This document shows positions 3,359-41,056 of a DNA stretch of 64,000 nt, in pieces. The position numbers and the translations under genes are program-made. Where the stretch lies: NCBI GenBank assembly GCA_013265495.1, contig MU057584.1, positions 1 through 64,000 on the forward strand, written 5' to 3'. Source of the DNA: Vicugna vicugna (taxonomy: Eukaryota). Below the pieces are notes generated by a model that did no database searches, was not told the origin of the DNA, and saw only the letters and a program-made list of their open reading frames with translations. Positions within the stretch are counted from its first letter, which is position 1; every line of letters begins with the position of its first letter.

Positions 3359-5206
<1,848 letters not shown>

Positions 5207-8045: not shown

Positions 8046-8312
8046 TATGTCTTTGACTTCTAACTTTTACCTCACTCTGTGAGACTTGGTGTGGTTCTAA
8101 ATTGGTTTCATTGATGTTTAGTGGATAGGCACCTACTGGACTACTTCTTGGTGGCTGTAACCATGCAAATCAGAGACCATATTATACATCCAAAGGATAT
8201 GGTGGATATTCCATGGATTCATTAGAGTCTCATGCTCGTTCCTAACTAAAATCTTGAAGACACTGGACACAGTATTCACTTGTCCAGATCTCTGCATTCC
8301 TTGTCCTTAGAG

Positions 8313-9105
<793 letters not shown>

Positions 9106-9239
9106 AATCCCCTGATTGTCACAGTATTTAAGATACAAGATAGCAAAGAGGAAGAGTGAACATCACCCAGAACTTTGCATCCTGTTCTAGAAAAAAGACA
9201 TAATGTGTTTTTTATTGTATGCAAGATACTTGTATCAAA

Positions 9240-20169: not shown

Positions 20170-20322
<153 letters not shown>

Positions 20323-21485: not shown

Positions 21486-21578
21486 GGTGTCACCCCTTCA
21501 AACATGATATATTCCACTTAGAAAAGGCAGATGGACTTTGGTGGGTAAAGACAGCAGCCCAAAGAGAAAGGAAGTCAG
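21486..21578 (+). CDS. ZNF234: ZNF234 KRAB-b exon (93 bp)
   Basis: Bounded by cacag|GG and TCAG|gtaag. Encodes GCHPFKHDIFHLEKADGLWWVKTAAQRERKS. Confidence 0.88.
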
Positions 21579-21699
21579 GTAAGAACCGGGCGGATGGGAG
21601 TCCTTGTGGACGCTCTCCCACGTGTCTGACTTCTCTCCAGCCATTTTGCTCTCATCTGCTCCATGTGCACACCTCTTTGCTGAATTCTTTCAGTCACCT

Positions 21700-22130
21700 T
21701 CGTACTGGTTGCCCCTCTGCCACTCCTCCCCTCTTATAGTCTGTTCTCCGTGTAGCAGCCAAAGTGATCCTTAGGAAATGTAAGTCAGGTTATAATTCCT
21801 CTATTAAACCCTTCATGGCTTCTTATTTTTCTTAAAGTTAAAACCTCTTAAAGTGGCTCCTGGAGTCCTCCAGACTCTGCTCTTGGTCATCCCTCCCCCC
21901 ACCCCACCAAGCCTTCTTGATGCATCTCCCCTTCTGTCCCTCTTCCTCCATCTCTTGCAGCCACACTGGCCTCCCCGCTGTCCTCACACCTGCCAGGGAT
22001 GCCGTGTCACCCGTGGCTGCCCTGACAAACTACCACAGACCTCACGGCTTAGCACAGCACATGTTGATTGCCTCACGGTTCTAGCGGTCAGAGGTGTGGT
22101 ATGGTTCTTACTGGGCTGAAGTCAACTGAG
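21700..22130. mobile_element. L2 remnant followed by an MLT1 (MaLR) LTR fragment
   Basis: gcagccaaagtgatcctt...gcagccacactggcctcc is L2-like. gtggctgccctgacaaactaccacagacctcacggcttag is MLT1-like. Confidence 0.65.
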
Positions 22131-22341
22131 GGGTTTTATGGGATGCTACATGGATAGTGGCCAACTAGACCTCTTGGTTTCCATTGTCAGGCAAACCAGA
22201 ACACACGGTACACAATGGAAGAGACAAACTGAACATTCTCTGGACTCATTCTAGTCTCACACTCTCTCCTGAATGTGAAATCTTGAAAACCCTGAACAGA
22301 GCCTTCAGTTGTTCACGTCTCTGAATTTTGTGTCTTTACAG

Positions 22342-24209
22342 AAGGAAAGATCCCAAGTGAGATGGAGGCTGTTCCAGAAGCAGGACCACATGGAGAGCGT
22401 CCCTGCTGGCAGATGTGGCATCAGATTGCCAGTGACTTAAGCAGGTGTCAAGACTTCATGATAAAAAGTTCTGAGTTCCCTAGGCAAGATGACTCACCTG
22501 GCCAGGGTGGGGCAGGACTGGCTTTAACTCACACAGGCCAGAAACTTTATCCATGTAATGAGTGTAAGAAACCTTTCAGCGATGTCTCCCACTTTGATCT
22601 TCACCAACAAATGCACTCAGGAGAGAAGTCTCATACGTGTAGTGTGTGTGGAAAAAGCTTCTGTTACAGCTCAGCACTTCGTATTCATCAGCGAGTCCAC
22701 TTGGGAGAGAAACGCTATAAATGTGATGAGTGTGGGAAGGAATTCAGTCAGAACGCACAGCTGCAAACTCATCAGAAAGTCCACACCGTCGAGAAGCCAT
22801 TCAAATGTGAGCAGTGTGGGAAAGGCTTCAGCCGTCGGTCCACACTTACTGTTCACTGTAAATTACACACAGGAGAGAAGCCTTACAATTGTGACGAATG
22901 TGGAAGGGCCTTCATTCATGCTTCGCACCTGCAGGAACATCAGAGAATCCACACTGGGGAGAAACCGTTCAAATGTGATATATGCGGTAAGAACTTCCGC
23001 CGTAGATCAGCACTTAACAGTCACTGTATGGTCCACACTGGGGAGAAACCGTACAAATGTGAGGAGTGCGGGAAATGTTTCACTTGTAGCTCCAATCTTC
23101 ATATCCACCAGAGAGTCCACACGGGAGAGAAACCTTACAAGTGTGAAGAATGCGGTAAGTGCTTCATTCAGCCTTCACAATTTCAGGCTCATCGGAGAAT
23201 CCACACTGGAGAGAAGCCATATGTATGTCAAGTGTGTGGTAAAGGCTTCATTTACAGTTCAAGTTTTCAAGCCCATCAGGGAGTCCACACAGGAGAGAAA
23301 CCATACAAATGTGGTGAGTGTGGGAAGAGCTTCAGGATGAAAATCCATTATCAGGTCCACCTGGTCGTCCACACAGGGGAGAAACCCTACAAATGTGAGG
23401 TGTGTGGGAAGGGCTTCCGTCAGAGTTCGTATCTCAAAATCCATCAGAAGGCCCACAGCGTAGAGAAACCTTTTAAGTGTGAGGAGTGCGGGCAGGGCTT
23501 CAATCAGAGTTCCCGACTCCAGATTCACCAGCTGACGCACACCGGTGAGAAACCATACAAATGTGAAGAGTGCGGGAAGGGATTCAGTCGTAGAGCAGAT
23601 CTTAAAATTCACTGCAGAATCCACACAGGAGAGAAACCGTATAATTGTGAGGAGTGTGGGAAGGTTTTCAGTCAGGCCTCTCATCTCCTGACCCATCAGC
23701 GGGTCCATAGCGGAGAAAAACCATTCAGATGTGAGGAGTGTGGGAAAAGCTTCAGCCGCAGCTCACACCTTCAAGCCCATCAGAAAGTCCACACTGGAGA
23801 AAAGCCGTACAAATGTGAGGAGTGTGGGAAGGGCTTCAAGTGGAGCTTGAATCTTGACATGCACCAGAGGGTCCACACGGGAGAGAAACCCTACAAGTGT
23901 GGGGAGTGTGGGAAGCACTTCAGTCAGGCCTCGAGTCTTCAGCTTCACCAGAGCGTCCACACTGGGGAGAAGCCGTACAGATGTGATGTGTGTGGGAAGG
24001 TCTTCAGTCGGTCTTCACAGCTTCAGTATCACAGGCGCGTTCACACAGGGGAGAAGCCTTACAAGTGTGAGGCATGTGGTAAGAGCTTCAGCTGGCGCTC
24101 CAATCTTGTGAGTCATCACAAAATTCACACAGGCGATGCATTTTATGAAAGTGACGAGAGTGGTCAGAACCTCAAGGAACTATCAGAGGAAGGAAGTCCT
24201 ACAGAATGA
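22342..24209 (+). CDS. ZNF234: ZNF234 spacer and finger exon (19 C2H2 fingers)
   Basis: Acceptor tttacag|AA is in frame with ORF 22362..24209. Diagnostic fingers [18 protein letters not shown] and [13 protein letters not shown], and the tail [19 protein letters not shown], match human ZNF234 as recalled. Confidence 0.92.
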
Positions 24210-25884
24210 TGCTTTCAGAACCCTCATGTGCCGCCTGAATTCTTGTCATCATTAGGTCTCAGAGGAGAGAAAATATTGGAGGTTAGTTGGTGTGGAAGCA
24301 GTCGCTGAACAGATCCCAGTTCTCTCTAGATGGCACAGCAGAGAGCCCTTCTAACTGGTGCAGTGGCGGCTGCTGTCAGAACTGTGACATGTCACTTTGG
24401 AGATAGGACTTAGAAGGGAAAAGAGTTTGGTCTGGCCTTTAGCAAAAGCATAGGGACAGGCTCATCAGAATCTCTGTCCTTAGAATGTGAGCTCCAGGAG
24501 GGCAGGGACCTGCCTGCTCAATCTCCCCCATCTTAACACTGACTAGCGCTTGCAGGTGTGCTCAGTGCTTGGTCGTTAAGTAATCCAAAAGGTGAAAAGG
24601 TTCAACATATGAAAATTATATCCAGAGGAGGAAACCCGCAAAATAAGATTAATTCAGGAAAGGAACATTTGTTGAGATGCAGGAAACCACTCTGTATGAC
24701 AGTCCATGAAATTAACGAGGTGTTAGTCGGTTGCAGTTGGCATCTTTCCTCCCACAGCGTCTGTTCTACAGGTCAGGGGATTATTTGGGGCCCTGCCTGG
24801 TTTTCCAAGGATTGTGTCTAGTATAAACTGAACTATCTCATGATTTTTTTTCCCTAACAATGCAGACTGAAAAATTGTGGTTAACTCTACAACAGCAGGT
24901 TAAATGCATATTATACAATTGATTTTTATCTATCAGTGTTAAGGCAGGGCTTACTGTAACACTTCGAAAGCTATCGCAGGTGGTTACCAATGACAAGCAT
25001 GTTCTTAGTCGATCTGGAGATTTTTATGGATTTCTAATTGTCTGTGTTTTCAGCCAGAAATGTTTGCCTTCTAATTATGGTAGCATTTCTTCTTTAAGAA
25101 CTTCTCAGGGGTCTTTGCCATAGTCTTCCCCCACATCCATGGGGCAAATCACCAGAAAACTTGCAGGAATTTGATCAAATTATCAAATGTATTATTGAGG
25201 TGAGACTGGCATTTATATGCTTTCCCTATTGGTAGCAGGAAAGCATGGTTTGGGGAAAGGAGAACATATCAGAATACAGATTGTACATCTCTTGCATCTG
25301 GAAATCATATCATTGGATGCTATGATTATGAAATTAAAATACCAAAAAATTGAGCACCACATCAATGATGTCACTGAATTTTTTAATTGAAATAAATGTA
25401 CATCTGTAGAAATTCGAGTTTTGCTATATTCCTGTGTGAATCTGAAGCCATTAAAATTATGGCAGATACCTGTAATGGCAGAAAAAATACATAATACGGA
25501 CTTTGAGAGACCACAGATTGTAGTCTTCTTGATATAATCAACCATAAATCTTTGTGTGTGTGTGCGTGCGCACATGTACGTGTACGTGCATAAAGTCATT
25601 TGTAAAAGATACTCTACCATAGTGGGTTTCCTTGGCAAGGAACATTTTACAGGTTTTTTTCCATTTTTTAATTTCAGGTTATGTTTTCATTTTTCATTGA
25701 ATATTGAATATTACCAGAGCAGTAAATTATTACAACAGAATTTGAAAAAGTACTACATTATTTTTTTTAATTTTAAGTACTGAATAATTATCCCTTGCAG
25801 TTAAGACCTCATAATATGATTGTTCTATATTGTCATTTAAGTTGTAAGATCAAAATTAAGGTATGGACTCTGGAAGGCAATTTC

Positions 25885-36438: not shown

Positions 36439-37039
36439 TTATTTTTCTAAACATTTTTTATTGAGTTGTAATAATTTTACAGTGTTATGTCAAATCGTCT
36501 CCATTTTAAATACAAAGAAAAGGAATTGTGAGAAGTTAAAAACCTGCTCAGGCTTCCCTAGAAAACCGAGGATCTGGAGGCAGAGAACTGCACTCGAGCG
36601 AGAGACAGGGAAAGAGGGTTTCCCTGGGAGGCCAGGCCCACCCTCTTGGTTCATTTCCACACATGCCGCCCCTCCTCACCTGGTTCCCTCTGTGGGAAGG
36701 CAGGTGCTGTCGCGTGCCCCTGAGACTAAATTGGGAAAAATTTCGGGGCACTTGGCAATATTAAATAAAAAGTGAGACCTTTTCAGTTCAGGAGGCAGCA
36801 GTTAGAATTTTAGGGAGTTTACTGAGAGTATCGGGTGAGTACACAAACTTTCTCTTTCACAGCAGCACTTGGGGTGAGGCCGAGGAGAGCCAGTATGTGG
36901 CACTGGCAGGAGAGGAGGAGGGGGGCTGGGAAGTCTACAGATGGCACGAGAGCCACAGCAGCTTCCCACCCATCCTCCTCACCTTACTGGCACCACCTCT
37001 CTTCCATGGACATGGCGTTTATTGTATTGTTTGTTGCAG

Positions 37040-37166
37040 GAGGCAGTGACCTTCAAGGATGTGGCTGTGGCCTTCACAGAGGAGGAGCTGGGGCTGCTGG
37101 ACTCCACTCAGAGGAAGCTGTACCAGGACGTCATGGTGGAAAACTTCAGGAACCTGGTCTCAGTGG
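37040..37166 (+). CDS. ZNF226: ZNF226 KRAB-A exon (127 bp)
   Basis: Bounded by tgcag|GAG and GTGG|gtgag. Encodes [42 protein letters not shown]. Confidence 0.93.
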
Positions 37167-37770
37167 GTGAGGACAGCCTTTCTCTGGAGTGTCTTTGTGA
37201 CCTTGGTGTTTTAAGGCTTTGGGACCCTTAAAATGGTTCCTTGAGTTTGGGGACCAGACTGCCAGTTCCTGTGCAACACAAGGGGGTCTTTCTAAACAGG
37301 ATGTTTTAGGTCTTTTTCTTTTGTGTTTTGTGGAAGAACTGTAAATGGATAGGATGCTGCTGCACCTTGTCTGTTCTTTTTCAGGTTTCACTCCTGTCCC
37401 TTAGTGGATTAGGAAGCCAATTTATTGAGTCCTACGTGCAATTTTTAAAATACAGGAAATATCAGCGCTCTTAGGAAAGGTAGAACACGCTGCAGCAAGA
37501 ACTCTGGCCAATTGCATGAGTGGTGTGAGAGCCAGTGGGAACAGATTTAATGAAAATAGAAATTGCTTAGAAATAGATCATTCAGCCTTCATTTTAATAA
37601 TACATATTTTTACACATCTGGGTCATGAAGTAAATGCTGTTTCTTCAGTGGGTCACGATACAAAGTTTGAAAGACACCGCTTTCAATCTCTTGAATACAC
37701 AGTTGGAGATCAAATTTCCAGTGAATTTTAGCGCTAGAATGTTCACTTTAACTTGCGACTTTGTTCTCAG

Positions 37771-37863: not shown

Positions 37864-38903
37864 GTAAGAACCAAGCGGTTACGAGTTCTCGTAATTAATT
37901 CTCTGTTTTGCTTCTCATCATGCCAGTGCTGTCCGCCACCTGGTCCAGATCAGAAATCTCTTTCTCAGGTTATTGCATGGTCTGTACTGGTTGCCTGCTC
38001 CTACCCTTCTCCTGTAGCCTGTTCTTTAAGTGGCAGTCAGACTGATCTTTTTTGACTCTAAGGCAGGTTACGTGAGTTCTCTATTCAAGATTCTCTTATG
38101 GCTTATTTTACTTAGAGTAAAAACCACCTAAAGGTGGCTTCTTGAGTCCTCTGTGGTCTGCTGTCTGCTGTTCGGCCCCCACTACCTCTCTGAGTACATC
38201 TCCTATCCTCCATCTTGGCTCTGTCTTTTTCATCTATATTGTCCTCCCTGCTGCTTCTCAGACCTGCAAAAGATGCTTATGCCTCGCGGCCCTTTATGTG
38301 TCCACCTCTCTGCCTAGAATACTCTTTCATCTGTAATCCTTCAGGCCTCTTTACTTCATTCAGGTCACTCACTTTTAATGTCATAAGAAGGCTGTCCTTG
38401 ACCATCCTACTGAAACTACAGTCTTCTGTTTATTATTCTCTCTGCCCTGCCTAATTTTGCATCCAAGCATTGGTCATCACTCAGGTATATTTTTGTTCAT
38501 TTGTTTCTCACCTCTCTCCTCACTGGAGGGTAATCCCCAGGGGTAGAGGAATTTTGTCTGTTATGGCAGTGTCAAAGCTATGAGCACAACAAAACGCTTG
38601 CCTTTACTGGTACTGCGTTGTGGTAGGAGTGGCATGTTAATTTTTGAAAAATGACTTAAATAGTATGTCAGATGGTGATTTTATTTTAAGTGGGTTTTAT
38701 TAATGCTAAATATTTGGGAGTTTAATGGACCATCTCTTGATCTTTGTCAGTATACAAACCAAAGGACTTCATAGGTGGTGAAAAAGAAAAGACGAACCAT
38801 CCTGACATTCATTAAAGTCTTATACTGTGTCTTAAGTGTAAAGTCTCAAATCTGTAAATAGAGCTATCAGTTGTCCACATCTCTGAGTTCTCTGTCCTTA
38901 CAG

Positions 38904-41056
38904 GAGAAGACCATGCAAGTGAGTTGAGAACTGTTCAAGACAGAAGATCACATGAAGAGCTTTCCTGCTGGCAAATCTGGCAACAGATTGCAAATGACTT
39001 AACCAGATGTCACGACTCCACGGTAAATAGTTGTCAGTTCCACAAACAAGGTGATTCCCCCTGCCAGGTTGGGGTAGGGCTATCGATTCCAATTTCTGAA
39101 GATAAGAACTATATATTAAATGATAAAGCAGATGGTCCCAATGGTACAGGGAATCCAGAGTTTGCCCAGGATTCTTGGAGGAAGACTTCCTTGACCAAGT
39201 TGCAGAATTATCAAGACGGATACCAGCAAATTTCCATGAAAAATAAAGCCACCACCAGTTGGATTTCTCATCACCTTGATGATCATGGAGTATACAAAAG
39301 TGCAAAGTCTTACAGCCACAATGATTATGGAAAAGACAGCATAAGGATTTCAACATCAGATCAGAATAGAGTGATTGGCACAAGACAAAAACCCTACCAG
39401 TGTCATGAATGTAGAGAAACCTTCACCAGTCTCTCCACCTTTGATCTGCACCAGCAGTTACAATCAAAAGAGAACTCTCATGTGTGCCATAAGTGTGGAA
39501 AGGGCTTCTGTTACAGCTCAGTTCTCCGCATTCATCAGAGAGTTCACATGGGAGAAAAACACAGTAAGTGTGATGCATGTGGAAAGGAATTCAGTCAGAG
39601 CTCCCATCTGCAAACTCATCAGAAAGTCCATACCATAAAGAAACCATTCACATGTGAAGAATGTGGGAAAGGCTTCAGTCGTAGATCAGCACTGACTGTT
39701 CACCGTAAAGTCCACACAGGAGAGAAACCTTATAATTGTAAGGAGTGTGGGAGGGCCTTCAGTCAAGCCTCTCATCTTCAGGACCATCAGAGAGTCCACA
39801 CTGGGGAGAAACCATTCAAATGTGATGCATGTGGTAAGAGCTTCAGTCGGAATTCACATCTTCAGTCCCACCGGAGAGTCCATACAGGAGAGAAACCATA
39901 CAAATGTGAGGAATGTGGGAAGGGTTTCATTTGTAGCTCAAATCTGTACATTCATCAGAGGGTCCACACAGGAGAAAAACCCTACAGATGTGAGGAATGT
40001 GGTAAAGGCTTTAGTCGGCCTTCAAGTCTTCAGGCCCATCAGGGAGTCCACACTGGAGAGAAATCATACGTATGTAATGTGTGTGGTAAAGGCTTTACTT
40101 TGAGTTCAAACCTTCAGGCTCATCAAAGAGTCCACACAGGAGAGAAACCATACAAATGTGGTGAGTGTGGGAAGAGCTTCAGGATGAAAATCCATTATCA
40201 GGTCCACCTGGTCGTCCACACAGGGGAGAAACCCTACAAATGTGAGGTGTGTGGGAAGGGCTTCAGTCAGAGTTCATATCTTCAGATCCATCAGAAGGCC
40301 CACAGCGTAGAGAAACCTTTTAAGTGTGAGGAGTGCGGGCAGGGCTTCAATCAGAGTTCCCGACTCCAGATTCACCAGCTGACGCACACCGGTGAGAAAC
40401 CATACAAATGTGAAGAGTGCGGGAAGGGATTCAGTCGTAGAGCAGATCTTAAAATTCACTGCAGAATCCACACAGGAGAGAAACCGTATAATTGTGAGGA
40501 GTGTGGGAAAGTCTTCAGGCAGGCCTCAAATCTTCTTGCCCATCAGCGAGTCCATAGCGGAGAAAAACCATTCAAATGTGAAGAGTGTGGGAAAAGCTTC
40601 GGTCGGAGTTCACACCTTCAAGCCCATCAGAAAGTCCACACTGGAGAAAAGCCGTACAAATGTGAGGAGTGTGGGAAGGGCTTCAAGTGGAGCTTGAATC
40701 TTGACATGCACCAGAGGGTCCACACGGGAGAGAAACCCTACAAGTGTGGGGAGTGTGGGAAGCACTTCAGTCAGGCCTCGAGTCTTCAGCTTCACCAGAG
40801 CGTCCACACTGGGGAGAAGCCGTACAGATGTGATGTGTGTGGGAAGGTCTTCAGTCGGTCTTCACAACTGCAGTCTCATCAGAGAGTTCACACAGGGGAG
40901 AAGCCTTACAAGTGTGAGGTATGTAGTAAGAGCTTCAGTTGGCGATCAAATCTAACAATTCATCACAGAATCCATGCTGGTGATAAATCCTACAAAAGTG
41001 ATAGGGGTGATAAGACCATCAGAGAGTCCACTCAGGAAAAAAGTTCTATAAAGTGA
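38904..41056 (+). CDS. ZNF226: ZNF226 spacer and finger exon (18 intact plus 1 degenerate C2H2 finger)
   Basis: Acceptor ccttacag|GA is in frame with ORF 38924..41056. Fingers SRNSHL, ICSSNL, SRPSSL and TLSSNL, and the tail [25 protein letters not shown], match human ZNF226 as recalled. Confidence 0.92.

Follow-up and report, generated by a model that had tools for sequence, protein, structure and literature searches.

This work concerns two tandem KRAB zinc-finger genes that lie on the same strand, 16.8 kb apart, in a 64,000-nucleotide stretch of the Vicugna vicugna genome (contig MU057584.1 of assembly GCA_013265495.1, positions 1 to 64,000). We call this whole stretch the window; it makes up the first 64 kb of a scaffold of 947 kb, in an assembly of 2.03 Gb and 12,405 contigs. 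We refer to the first gene as A, the ZNF234-position gene, and to the second as B, which is ZNF226-like. The two are old paralogues, and we consider it very probable that they have recently undergone ectopic (interlocus) gene conversion. Three tracts within their arrays of C2H2 fingers are identical base for base, whereas fingers 1-9 of the same arrays differ at 21% of sites.

Identical tracts and the patches between them

At a constant offset of 16,847 bp, A and B are homologous without gaps from about 22532 to 24388 in the coordinates of A, and 206 of the 1598 coding sites between 22554 and 24151 differ. The longest identical runs in this coding interval are 257, 224 and 137 bp; the next longest are 34, 25 and 23 bp. 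All three long runs are on the + strand. The first tract lies at 23281-23417, from the end of finger 9 to position -3 of finger 11 (B copy 40128-40264), the second at 23439-23662, from position +6 of finger 11 to position -5 of finger 14 (B copy 40286-40509), and the third at 23763-24019, from position +2 of finger 15 to position +2 of finger 18 (B copy 40610-40866). The sequence-only reading of this DNA had described these tracts as identical at every base, silent sites included, and that is exactly what we find, with mismatches at 0 of 137, 0 of 224 and 0 of 257 sites. Fingers 10, 12, 13, 16 and 17 are each identical at 84 of 84 bases. When the differences were permuted 20,000 times in a Sawyer-type runs test, the longest run averaged 42 bp with a maximum of 101, and 0 of the 20,000 permutations reached 137. 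Identity is 78.3% outside 23281-24019 (859 sites) and 97.3% inside it, where all 20 differences fall within the two gaps between the tracts.

The duplication itself is old, as had also been proposed. In fingers 1-9 there are differences at 84 of 242 third codon positions, the Nei-Gojobori synonymous divergence (dS) is 0.86 there and 1.21 downstream of the mosaic, and the introns are homologous only in pieces of 65-82% identity. The tracts show no differences at any of 205 third positions and no synonymous differences over 118.2 synonymous sites. Since silent sites have been homogenised in the tracts and not in the flanks, constraint at the level of the protein is excluded as the cause. Among the other pairs of zinc-finger exons (10 open frames within the contig's first 224 kb) none has an exact run of more than 45 bp, and no third locus in the whole assembly matches the 739-bp region at better than 75% identity.

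Two patches interrupt the identity, both again on the + strand. Patch 1 of A (23418-23438; B copy 40265-40285) covers the helix of finger 11 from position -2 to +5 and has 5 differences in 21 bp, a divergence of 24%. Two amino acids are replaced in it, R/S at -2 and K/Q at +5, and its silent change amounts to 3 of 7 third positions, or 3 synonymous differences on 4.0 sites. Patch 2 of A (23663-23762; B copy 40510-40609) runs from the helix of finger 14 through the linker and into finger 15 up to position +1. It has 15 differences in 100 bp (15%), with 5 amino-acid replacements, differences at 11 of 34 third positions and a dS of 0.78. Because synonymous differences stand at their full old density in these gaps, they are best read as old, unconverted ancestral stretches and not as mutations that arose after a continuous conversion. 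The helix differences that had been quoted for this region are all present: RQSSYLK/SQSSYLQ in finger 11, SQASHL/RQASNL in finger 14, SRSSH/GRSSH in finger 15 and LQYHRR/LQSHQR in finger 18.

Direction, age and mechanism

We believe that sequence likely moved from A to B. The orthologue-type proteins that were retrieved are whale P0001, rodent P0130, which lacks the fingers in question, and pangolin P0121, which lacks fingers. The whale protein, a chimeric 'partial' model with an A-type array, serves as the outgroup for A. A agrees with it at 234 of 252 residues in fingers 1-9 and at 244 of 252 in fingers 10-18; B agrees with it at 184 of 252 and 237 of 252 respectively, a comparison at the protein level with one outgroup per gene. 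The whale protein also has the A state at 8 of the 9 residues that differ between A and B in fingers 11-18. The ninth is the linker residue that follows finger 14 (23728 in A, 40575 in B), which is R in A and K in both B and the whale protein; the R is probably a change private to the lineage of A. Just outside the mosaic B has states in common with the rodent ZNF226-like protein P0130, in a finger segment of 13 residues and in 'TL.SNLQ'.

Base composition points the same way. The G+C content of third codon positions (GC3) is 126/205 in the tracts, 23/41 in the A patches, 17/41 in the B patches, 138/286 in the A flanks and 118/286 in the B flanks. Put as percentages, the tracts have 61% and the unconverted fingers 48% in A and 41% in B, and the tracts differ from the A flanks with a Fisher P of 0.004. 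Since the GC3 of the tracts is near that of the A patches and unlike that of the B patches and flanks, and since the whale protein matches the A type, A would be the donor and B the acceptor. The likely product is the whole mosaic in B at 40128-40866 on the + strand, which by sequence identity and GC3 consists of two native B patches set among three tracts of A type. The raised GC3 in these tracts may be the one hint of a longer, GC-biased history of conversion; a local peculiarity of A would explain it just as well.

Each tract would last have been homogenised within roughly the past 3-13 million years, which would be less than about 3% of the synonymous divergence of the paralogues. This is a 95% Poisson bound from 0 synonymous changes at 118 sites, with assumed rates of 1 to 2.2e-9 per site per year.

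The history we propose is as follows. A and B would have duplicated long before the camel-like, whale and rodent lineages split. A recent non-allelic conversion over fingers 10-18 would then have carried A sequence into B, leaving converted tracts of 137, 224 and 257 bp that are parted by native patches of 21 and 100 bp. We infer that the gaps require no selection. They could be what is left by three short events, or by one event with patchy heteroduplex repair, or a long tract may later have been broken where unconverted B alleles restored the native sequence by allelic exchange. Further events would be favoured next to a first tract of perfect identity, and this may be why the tracts cluster while fingers 1-9 show none. 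According to the passages concerned in PMC3924818, interlocus conversion tracts have mean lengths of 50 to several hundred bp and discontinuous tracts occur at low frequency. All three tracts are within the ordinary size of a single event. Two more specific causes of the gaps were considered and rejected. GC-biased restoration of B alleles in the heteroduplex does not fit patches in which 12 sites pair a strong base in A with a weak one in B and 6 sites pair them the other way round, which is the opposite of the expectation, and a mismatch barrier does not account for patch 2, whose 15% divergence is not above the flank average of 21%. The more diverged helix codons could still bias where tracts end.

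There are several points that weigh against this history. The identity of the tracts is that of the assembled sequence, and a few real differences in near-identical tracts could have been smoothed away during assembly or polishing. The rate of conversion falls sharply near 80% identity, and the minimal efficient processing segment in mammalian cells is about 200 bp, as stated in the relevant part of PMC3924818; conversion between sequences of only about 79% identity is expected to be rare, which makes the seeding of the first tract a difficulty. Three adjacent tracts with zero differences are also slightly awkward for three fully independent events. The direction hangs on a single whale protein, itself a chimeric model, compared at the protein level with one outgroup per gene. 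A ZNF226 orthologue with these eight fingers was not found in protein searches or in a metagenome scan; the scan, which looked for host-derived orthologous DNA, returned 77 loci of which the best is 57% identical and none is orthologous. The only representative match that reaches into the linker, P0296, was examined and is not a ZNF226 orthologue. Finally, the view that the B patches are ancestral B sequence rests solely on silent divergence and composition.

Alternative explanations

It is quite improbable, in our opinion, that the identity of the tracts was made by the assembly, through collapse, gap filling or polishing with reads from the wrong paralogue. The assembly is fragmented into its 12,405 contigs, with runs of N further along the scaffold, as is the case with short-read assemblies, and the tracts are shorter than typical library inserts. 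However, the patches between the tracts keep a divergence of 15-24% with clean boundaries, and both reading frames are intact. An assembler that separated the patches would not erase a divergence of about 20% beside them; at most it would hide a few isolated differences, and near-identical tracts with a few hidden differences would still need conversion. There is no N in the window and no leftover alternative contig of more than 75% identity in the assembly, and the tract is proper A-type sequence that agrees with the whale protein as well as described above. Eighteen runs from 6 studies contain 0.80-0.87 of the sampled 31-mers of 21500-25000, which has no bearing on the tract junctions. We give still less credence to the idea that one long conversion covered 23281-24019 and that the patches were later rewritten, with a third paralogue or a different finger within the gene as the source. 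Zinc-finger clusters do offer many partly homologous donors, and B shares an exact run of 45 bp with the ZNF227-like gene across the boundary of tract 1 and patch 1 and one of 35 bp with the ZNF112-like gene inside patch 2. These exact runs nevertheless fall in conserved linker and framework sequence, and similar runs of 35-42 bp occur between unrelated pairs. Of the 21 bases of patch 1, B agrees with A at 16 and with the ZNF227-like gene at 13. DNA searches of the whole assembly with both versions of each patch found no third-gene donor for either one. The best genome-wide match of each patch is the same patch of the other paralogue, at 92% for the 60-bp query used for patch 1 and at 87% for each copy of patch 2. 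Over the full query no third locus exceeds 83-85%; for patch 2 the ceiling is 83% over near-full length, and shorter pieces, of no more than 69 bases, match at 86-90%. A third-party donor is ruled out within this assembly by these searches, and a donor outside it is possible.

The remaining alternative concerns selection, and it shares with our reading the conversion itself. The sequence-only reading had claimed that ectopic conversion homogenises the C-terminal module while selection rejects conversion across the helices. Its first part stands: there was conversion, it is recent compared with the duplication, and it is interrupted by unconverted stretches. The second part is not borne out by our data. 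In full the idea is that conversion of the module recurs and that purifying selection removes alleles converted across the helices of fingers 11, 14-15 and 18, these helices keeping the DNA specificities of the two proteins apart, much like the divergence peak in exon 5 of the primate L/M opsins. We find this doubtful, and it seems unlikely to us as well that recurrent conversion from the ZNF234 position keeps an identical block of fingers in a pair about 100 million years old, with selection holding fingers 14 and 18, and perhaps 11, apart. The canonical base-contact positions of a zinc finger are -1, +2, +3 and +6. The breaks had been said to centre on the specificity helices, and their positions agree with this: patch 1 is wholly within the helix codons of finger 11 (-2 to +5), patch 2 spans the helix of finger 14, where A and B differ at +3 and +6, and the 3' end of the mosaic is within the helix of finger 18 (+2/+3), which differs at +6. 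Fingers 14 and 18 thus differ at contact positions, but the differences in fingers 11 and 15 are confined to -2 and +5, outside them. Four of the six tract endpoints fall in helix codons (P = 0.06 on a uniform null). At 28.7% divergence against 17.4% elsewhere (1.65-fold), these codons are richer in the markers by which endpoints are defined, and once the test is weighted for these denser markers P is 0.18. The raised GC3 of the tracts is what long-running GC-biased conversion would give, and the model is established for other gene pairs, as the passages of PMC3924837 concerned describe. However, the 2 and 5 replacements in the patches compare with means of 1.8 and 8.1 in windows of equal size slid over the unconverted fingers, so there is no excess. 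The ratio of nonsynonymous to synonymous divergence (dN/dS) is low, at 0.083 in patch 2 against 0.18 in fingers 1-9, and the divergence of the patches (24% and 15%, against the 21% of fingers 1-9) shows no excess over a merely unconverted stretch. The silent differences in the patches are as dense as in the old sequence, so the same appearance would be expected of any unconverted patch. With only two internal gaps there is no test with real power, and one recent episode, in place of recurrent conversion, may account for all three tracts. The selective reading is not refuted, and it is not supported by evidence of its own here.

The genes, their neighbours and known systems

Both genes have the KRAB-C2H2 layout, in which a KRAB box exon is followed by a single exon with a tandem C2H2 array; in A and B the KRAB-A box exon sits about 2 kb upstream of the finger exon. 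The KRAB-A box exon of A is at 20170-20301 on the + strand and that of B at 37034-37168, also on the + strand. Both were found by tblastn with the KRAB segments of P0121, and the Pfam KRAB domain (PF01352) matches the translations of 20170-20316 with an E of 1.1e-23 and of 37031-37195 with an E of 2.4e-23. The last-exon open frame of A (22296-24209, + strand) encodes a linker and 19 C2H2 fingers (zf-C2H2 E 6.8e-108), and whale P0001 is 91.5% identical to it over 589 residues. The splice acceptor lies somewhere within the first 60 or so bases of this frame, and the first Cys of finger 1 is at 22554. The last-exon open frame of B (38858-41056, + strand) encodes a long linker, one degenerate first finger and 18 intact fingers (zf-C2H2 E 4e-113), and it is colinear with P0130. 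A regular-expression search finds the same 19 fingers in A and 18 in B, in frame and with a period of 84 bp. Because the first finger of B is degenerate, finger n of B aligns with finger n+1 of A.

The names ZNF234 and ZNF226 that had been given to A and B are plausible. From the linker through the C-terminal tail B is colinear with the rodent protein P0130, which is named 'zinc finger protein 226-like'. The downstream neighbours have as their best-matching named proteins ZNF227 (83%), ZNF233 (65%), ZNF235 (81%) and ZNF112 (84%), and in the pangolin protein, a chimeric model, the same four linkers follow one another in an unchanged order. A is named from its position, given what we take to be the gene order of the human cluster. 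The protein searches returned no protein named ZNF234, though they returned ZNF112, ZNF227, ZNF233 and ZNF235 of many mammals, and ZNF226 never appeared in them from any mammal other than the one rodent. These searches rank by summed finger scores, which favours proteins with many fingers, and they are poor at finding zinc-finger orthologues.

The rodent model P0130, which is labelled LOW QUALITY, shows a further peculiarity. It is colinear with B in the linker, fingers 2-8, the last two fingers and the tail, and it lacks exactly fingers 9-16 of B (40157-40828 in the window), the eight-finger block that is A-type here. This gap may be an in-frame deletion in the rodent, an error of the model or the mark of a separate history of the block; the length that we presume for human ZNF226 favours loss of the block in the rodent.

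The window holds four KRAB zinc-finger genes on the same strand, with finger-exon open frames at 3359-5206, 22296-24209 (A), 38858-41056 (B) and from 62356 onward; the last of these, the ZNF227-like exon, extends past the end of the window to 64500. Between the first gene and A, at 8267-9110 on the + strand, there is a decayed last-exon relic of another KRAB zinc-finger paralogue, recognised by tblastn with the A protein; it has the A/B-like linker motif and several finger remnants, and it is broken by stops and frame shifts. Up to 216 kb, the scaffold has at least ten zinc-finger exons. In addition to the four in the window there is one at 84065 on the + strand, and others lie on the − strand at 103606 (ZNF235-like), 140558 (ZNF112-like), 174785, 191886 and 213917.

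Gene conversion among zinc-finger paralogues has been described before. Emerson and Thomas (2009) used GENECONV and found short conversion regions among paralogous poly-zinc-finger genes, as reported in the passages of PMC2604467 concerned. Their KRAB zinc-finger cases resemble the present one in being runs of identity in the otherwise diverged arrays of clustered paralogues. In the passages concerned, conversion is filtered out as a nuisance and the anatomy of single events is not given (PMC2604467). The case described here differs from theirs in that the pair is old (dS about 0.86), the mosaic is resolved to the base and discontinuous, and a direction can be proposed.

A closer parallel to the selective reading is offered by the opsins. 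That a peak of divergence under conversion marks a selected site is the model of Teshima and Innan (2008), applied to exon 5 of the primate L/M opsins in the portion of PMC3924837 that deals with it, and gibbon opsin data are given in the part of PMC3213168 concerned. The L/M opsins are like A and B in being tandem paralogues that are homogenised save for a short stretch with the residues that define function. In the opsins, however, the flanking introns are homogenised too, conversion recurs across species and the spared residues have measured effects. In A and B the introns are old, recurrence is not demonstrated and the patches carry no signature beyond that of any unconverted stretch. The discontinuous tracts seen in experiments, as the corresponding passages of PMC3924818 present them, are like those here in that unconverted markers interrupt converted ones within a few hundred bp, with tracts of 50 to several hundred bp. 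Those experimental systems give single observed events in reporter constructs (PMC3924818, same passages), whereas we see an evolutionary end product in which one event and several are indistinguishable. A full-text search of a literature library found no paper that joins ZNF226, ZNF234 and gene conversion; three papers contain two of these terms, and conversion is absent from all of them. On present evidence the case is a new, well-resolved instance of a known process, ordinary mosaic conversion.

It is important to recognise what such conversion does. In zinc-finger paralogues, which belong to the mammalian transcription-factor family that has the most members, it distorts calls of orthology, dating and tests of positive selection, and a base-resolved case with a probable donor and a probable acceptor is a useful worked example. 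The mosaic predicts that both proteins share their contact residues in seven of the nine C-terminal fingers, and they may share targets. If the same helices proved to be spared repeatedly in independent lineages, those helices would mark the fingers that define the function of each gene. If the selective reading were true, the targets of the two repressors A and B would overlap while a slight difference in specificity was protected; the pair would be the zinc-finger equivalent of the exon-5 peak of the opsins, and this would provide a way to find which fingers matter in vivo.

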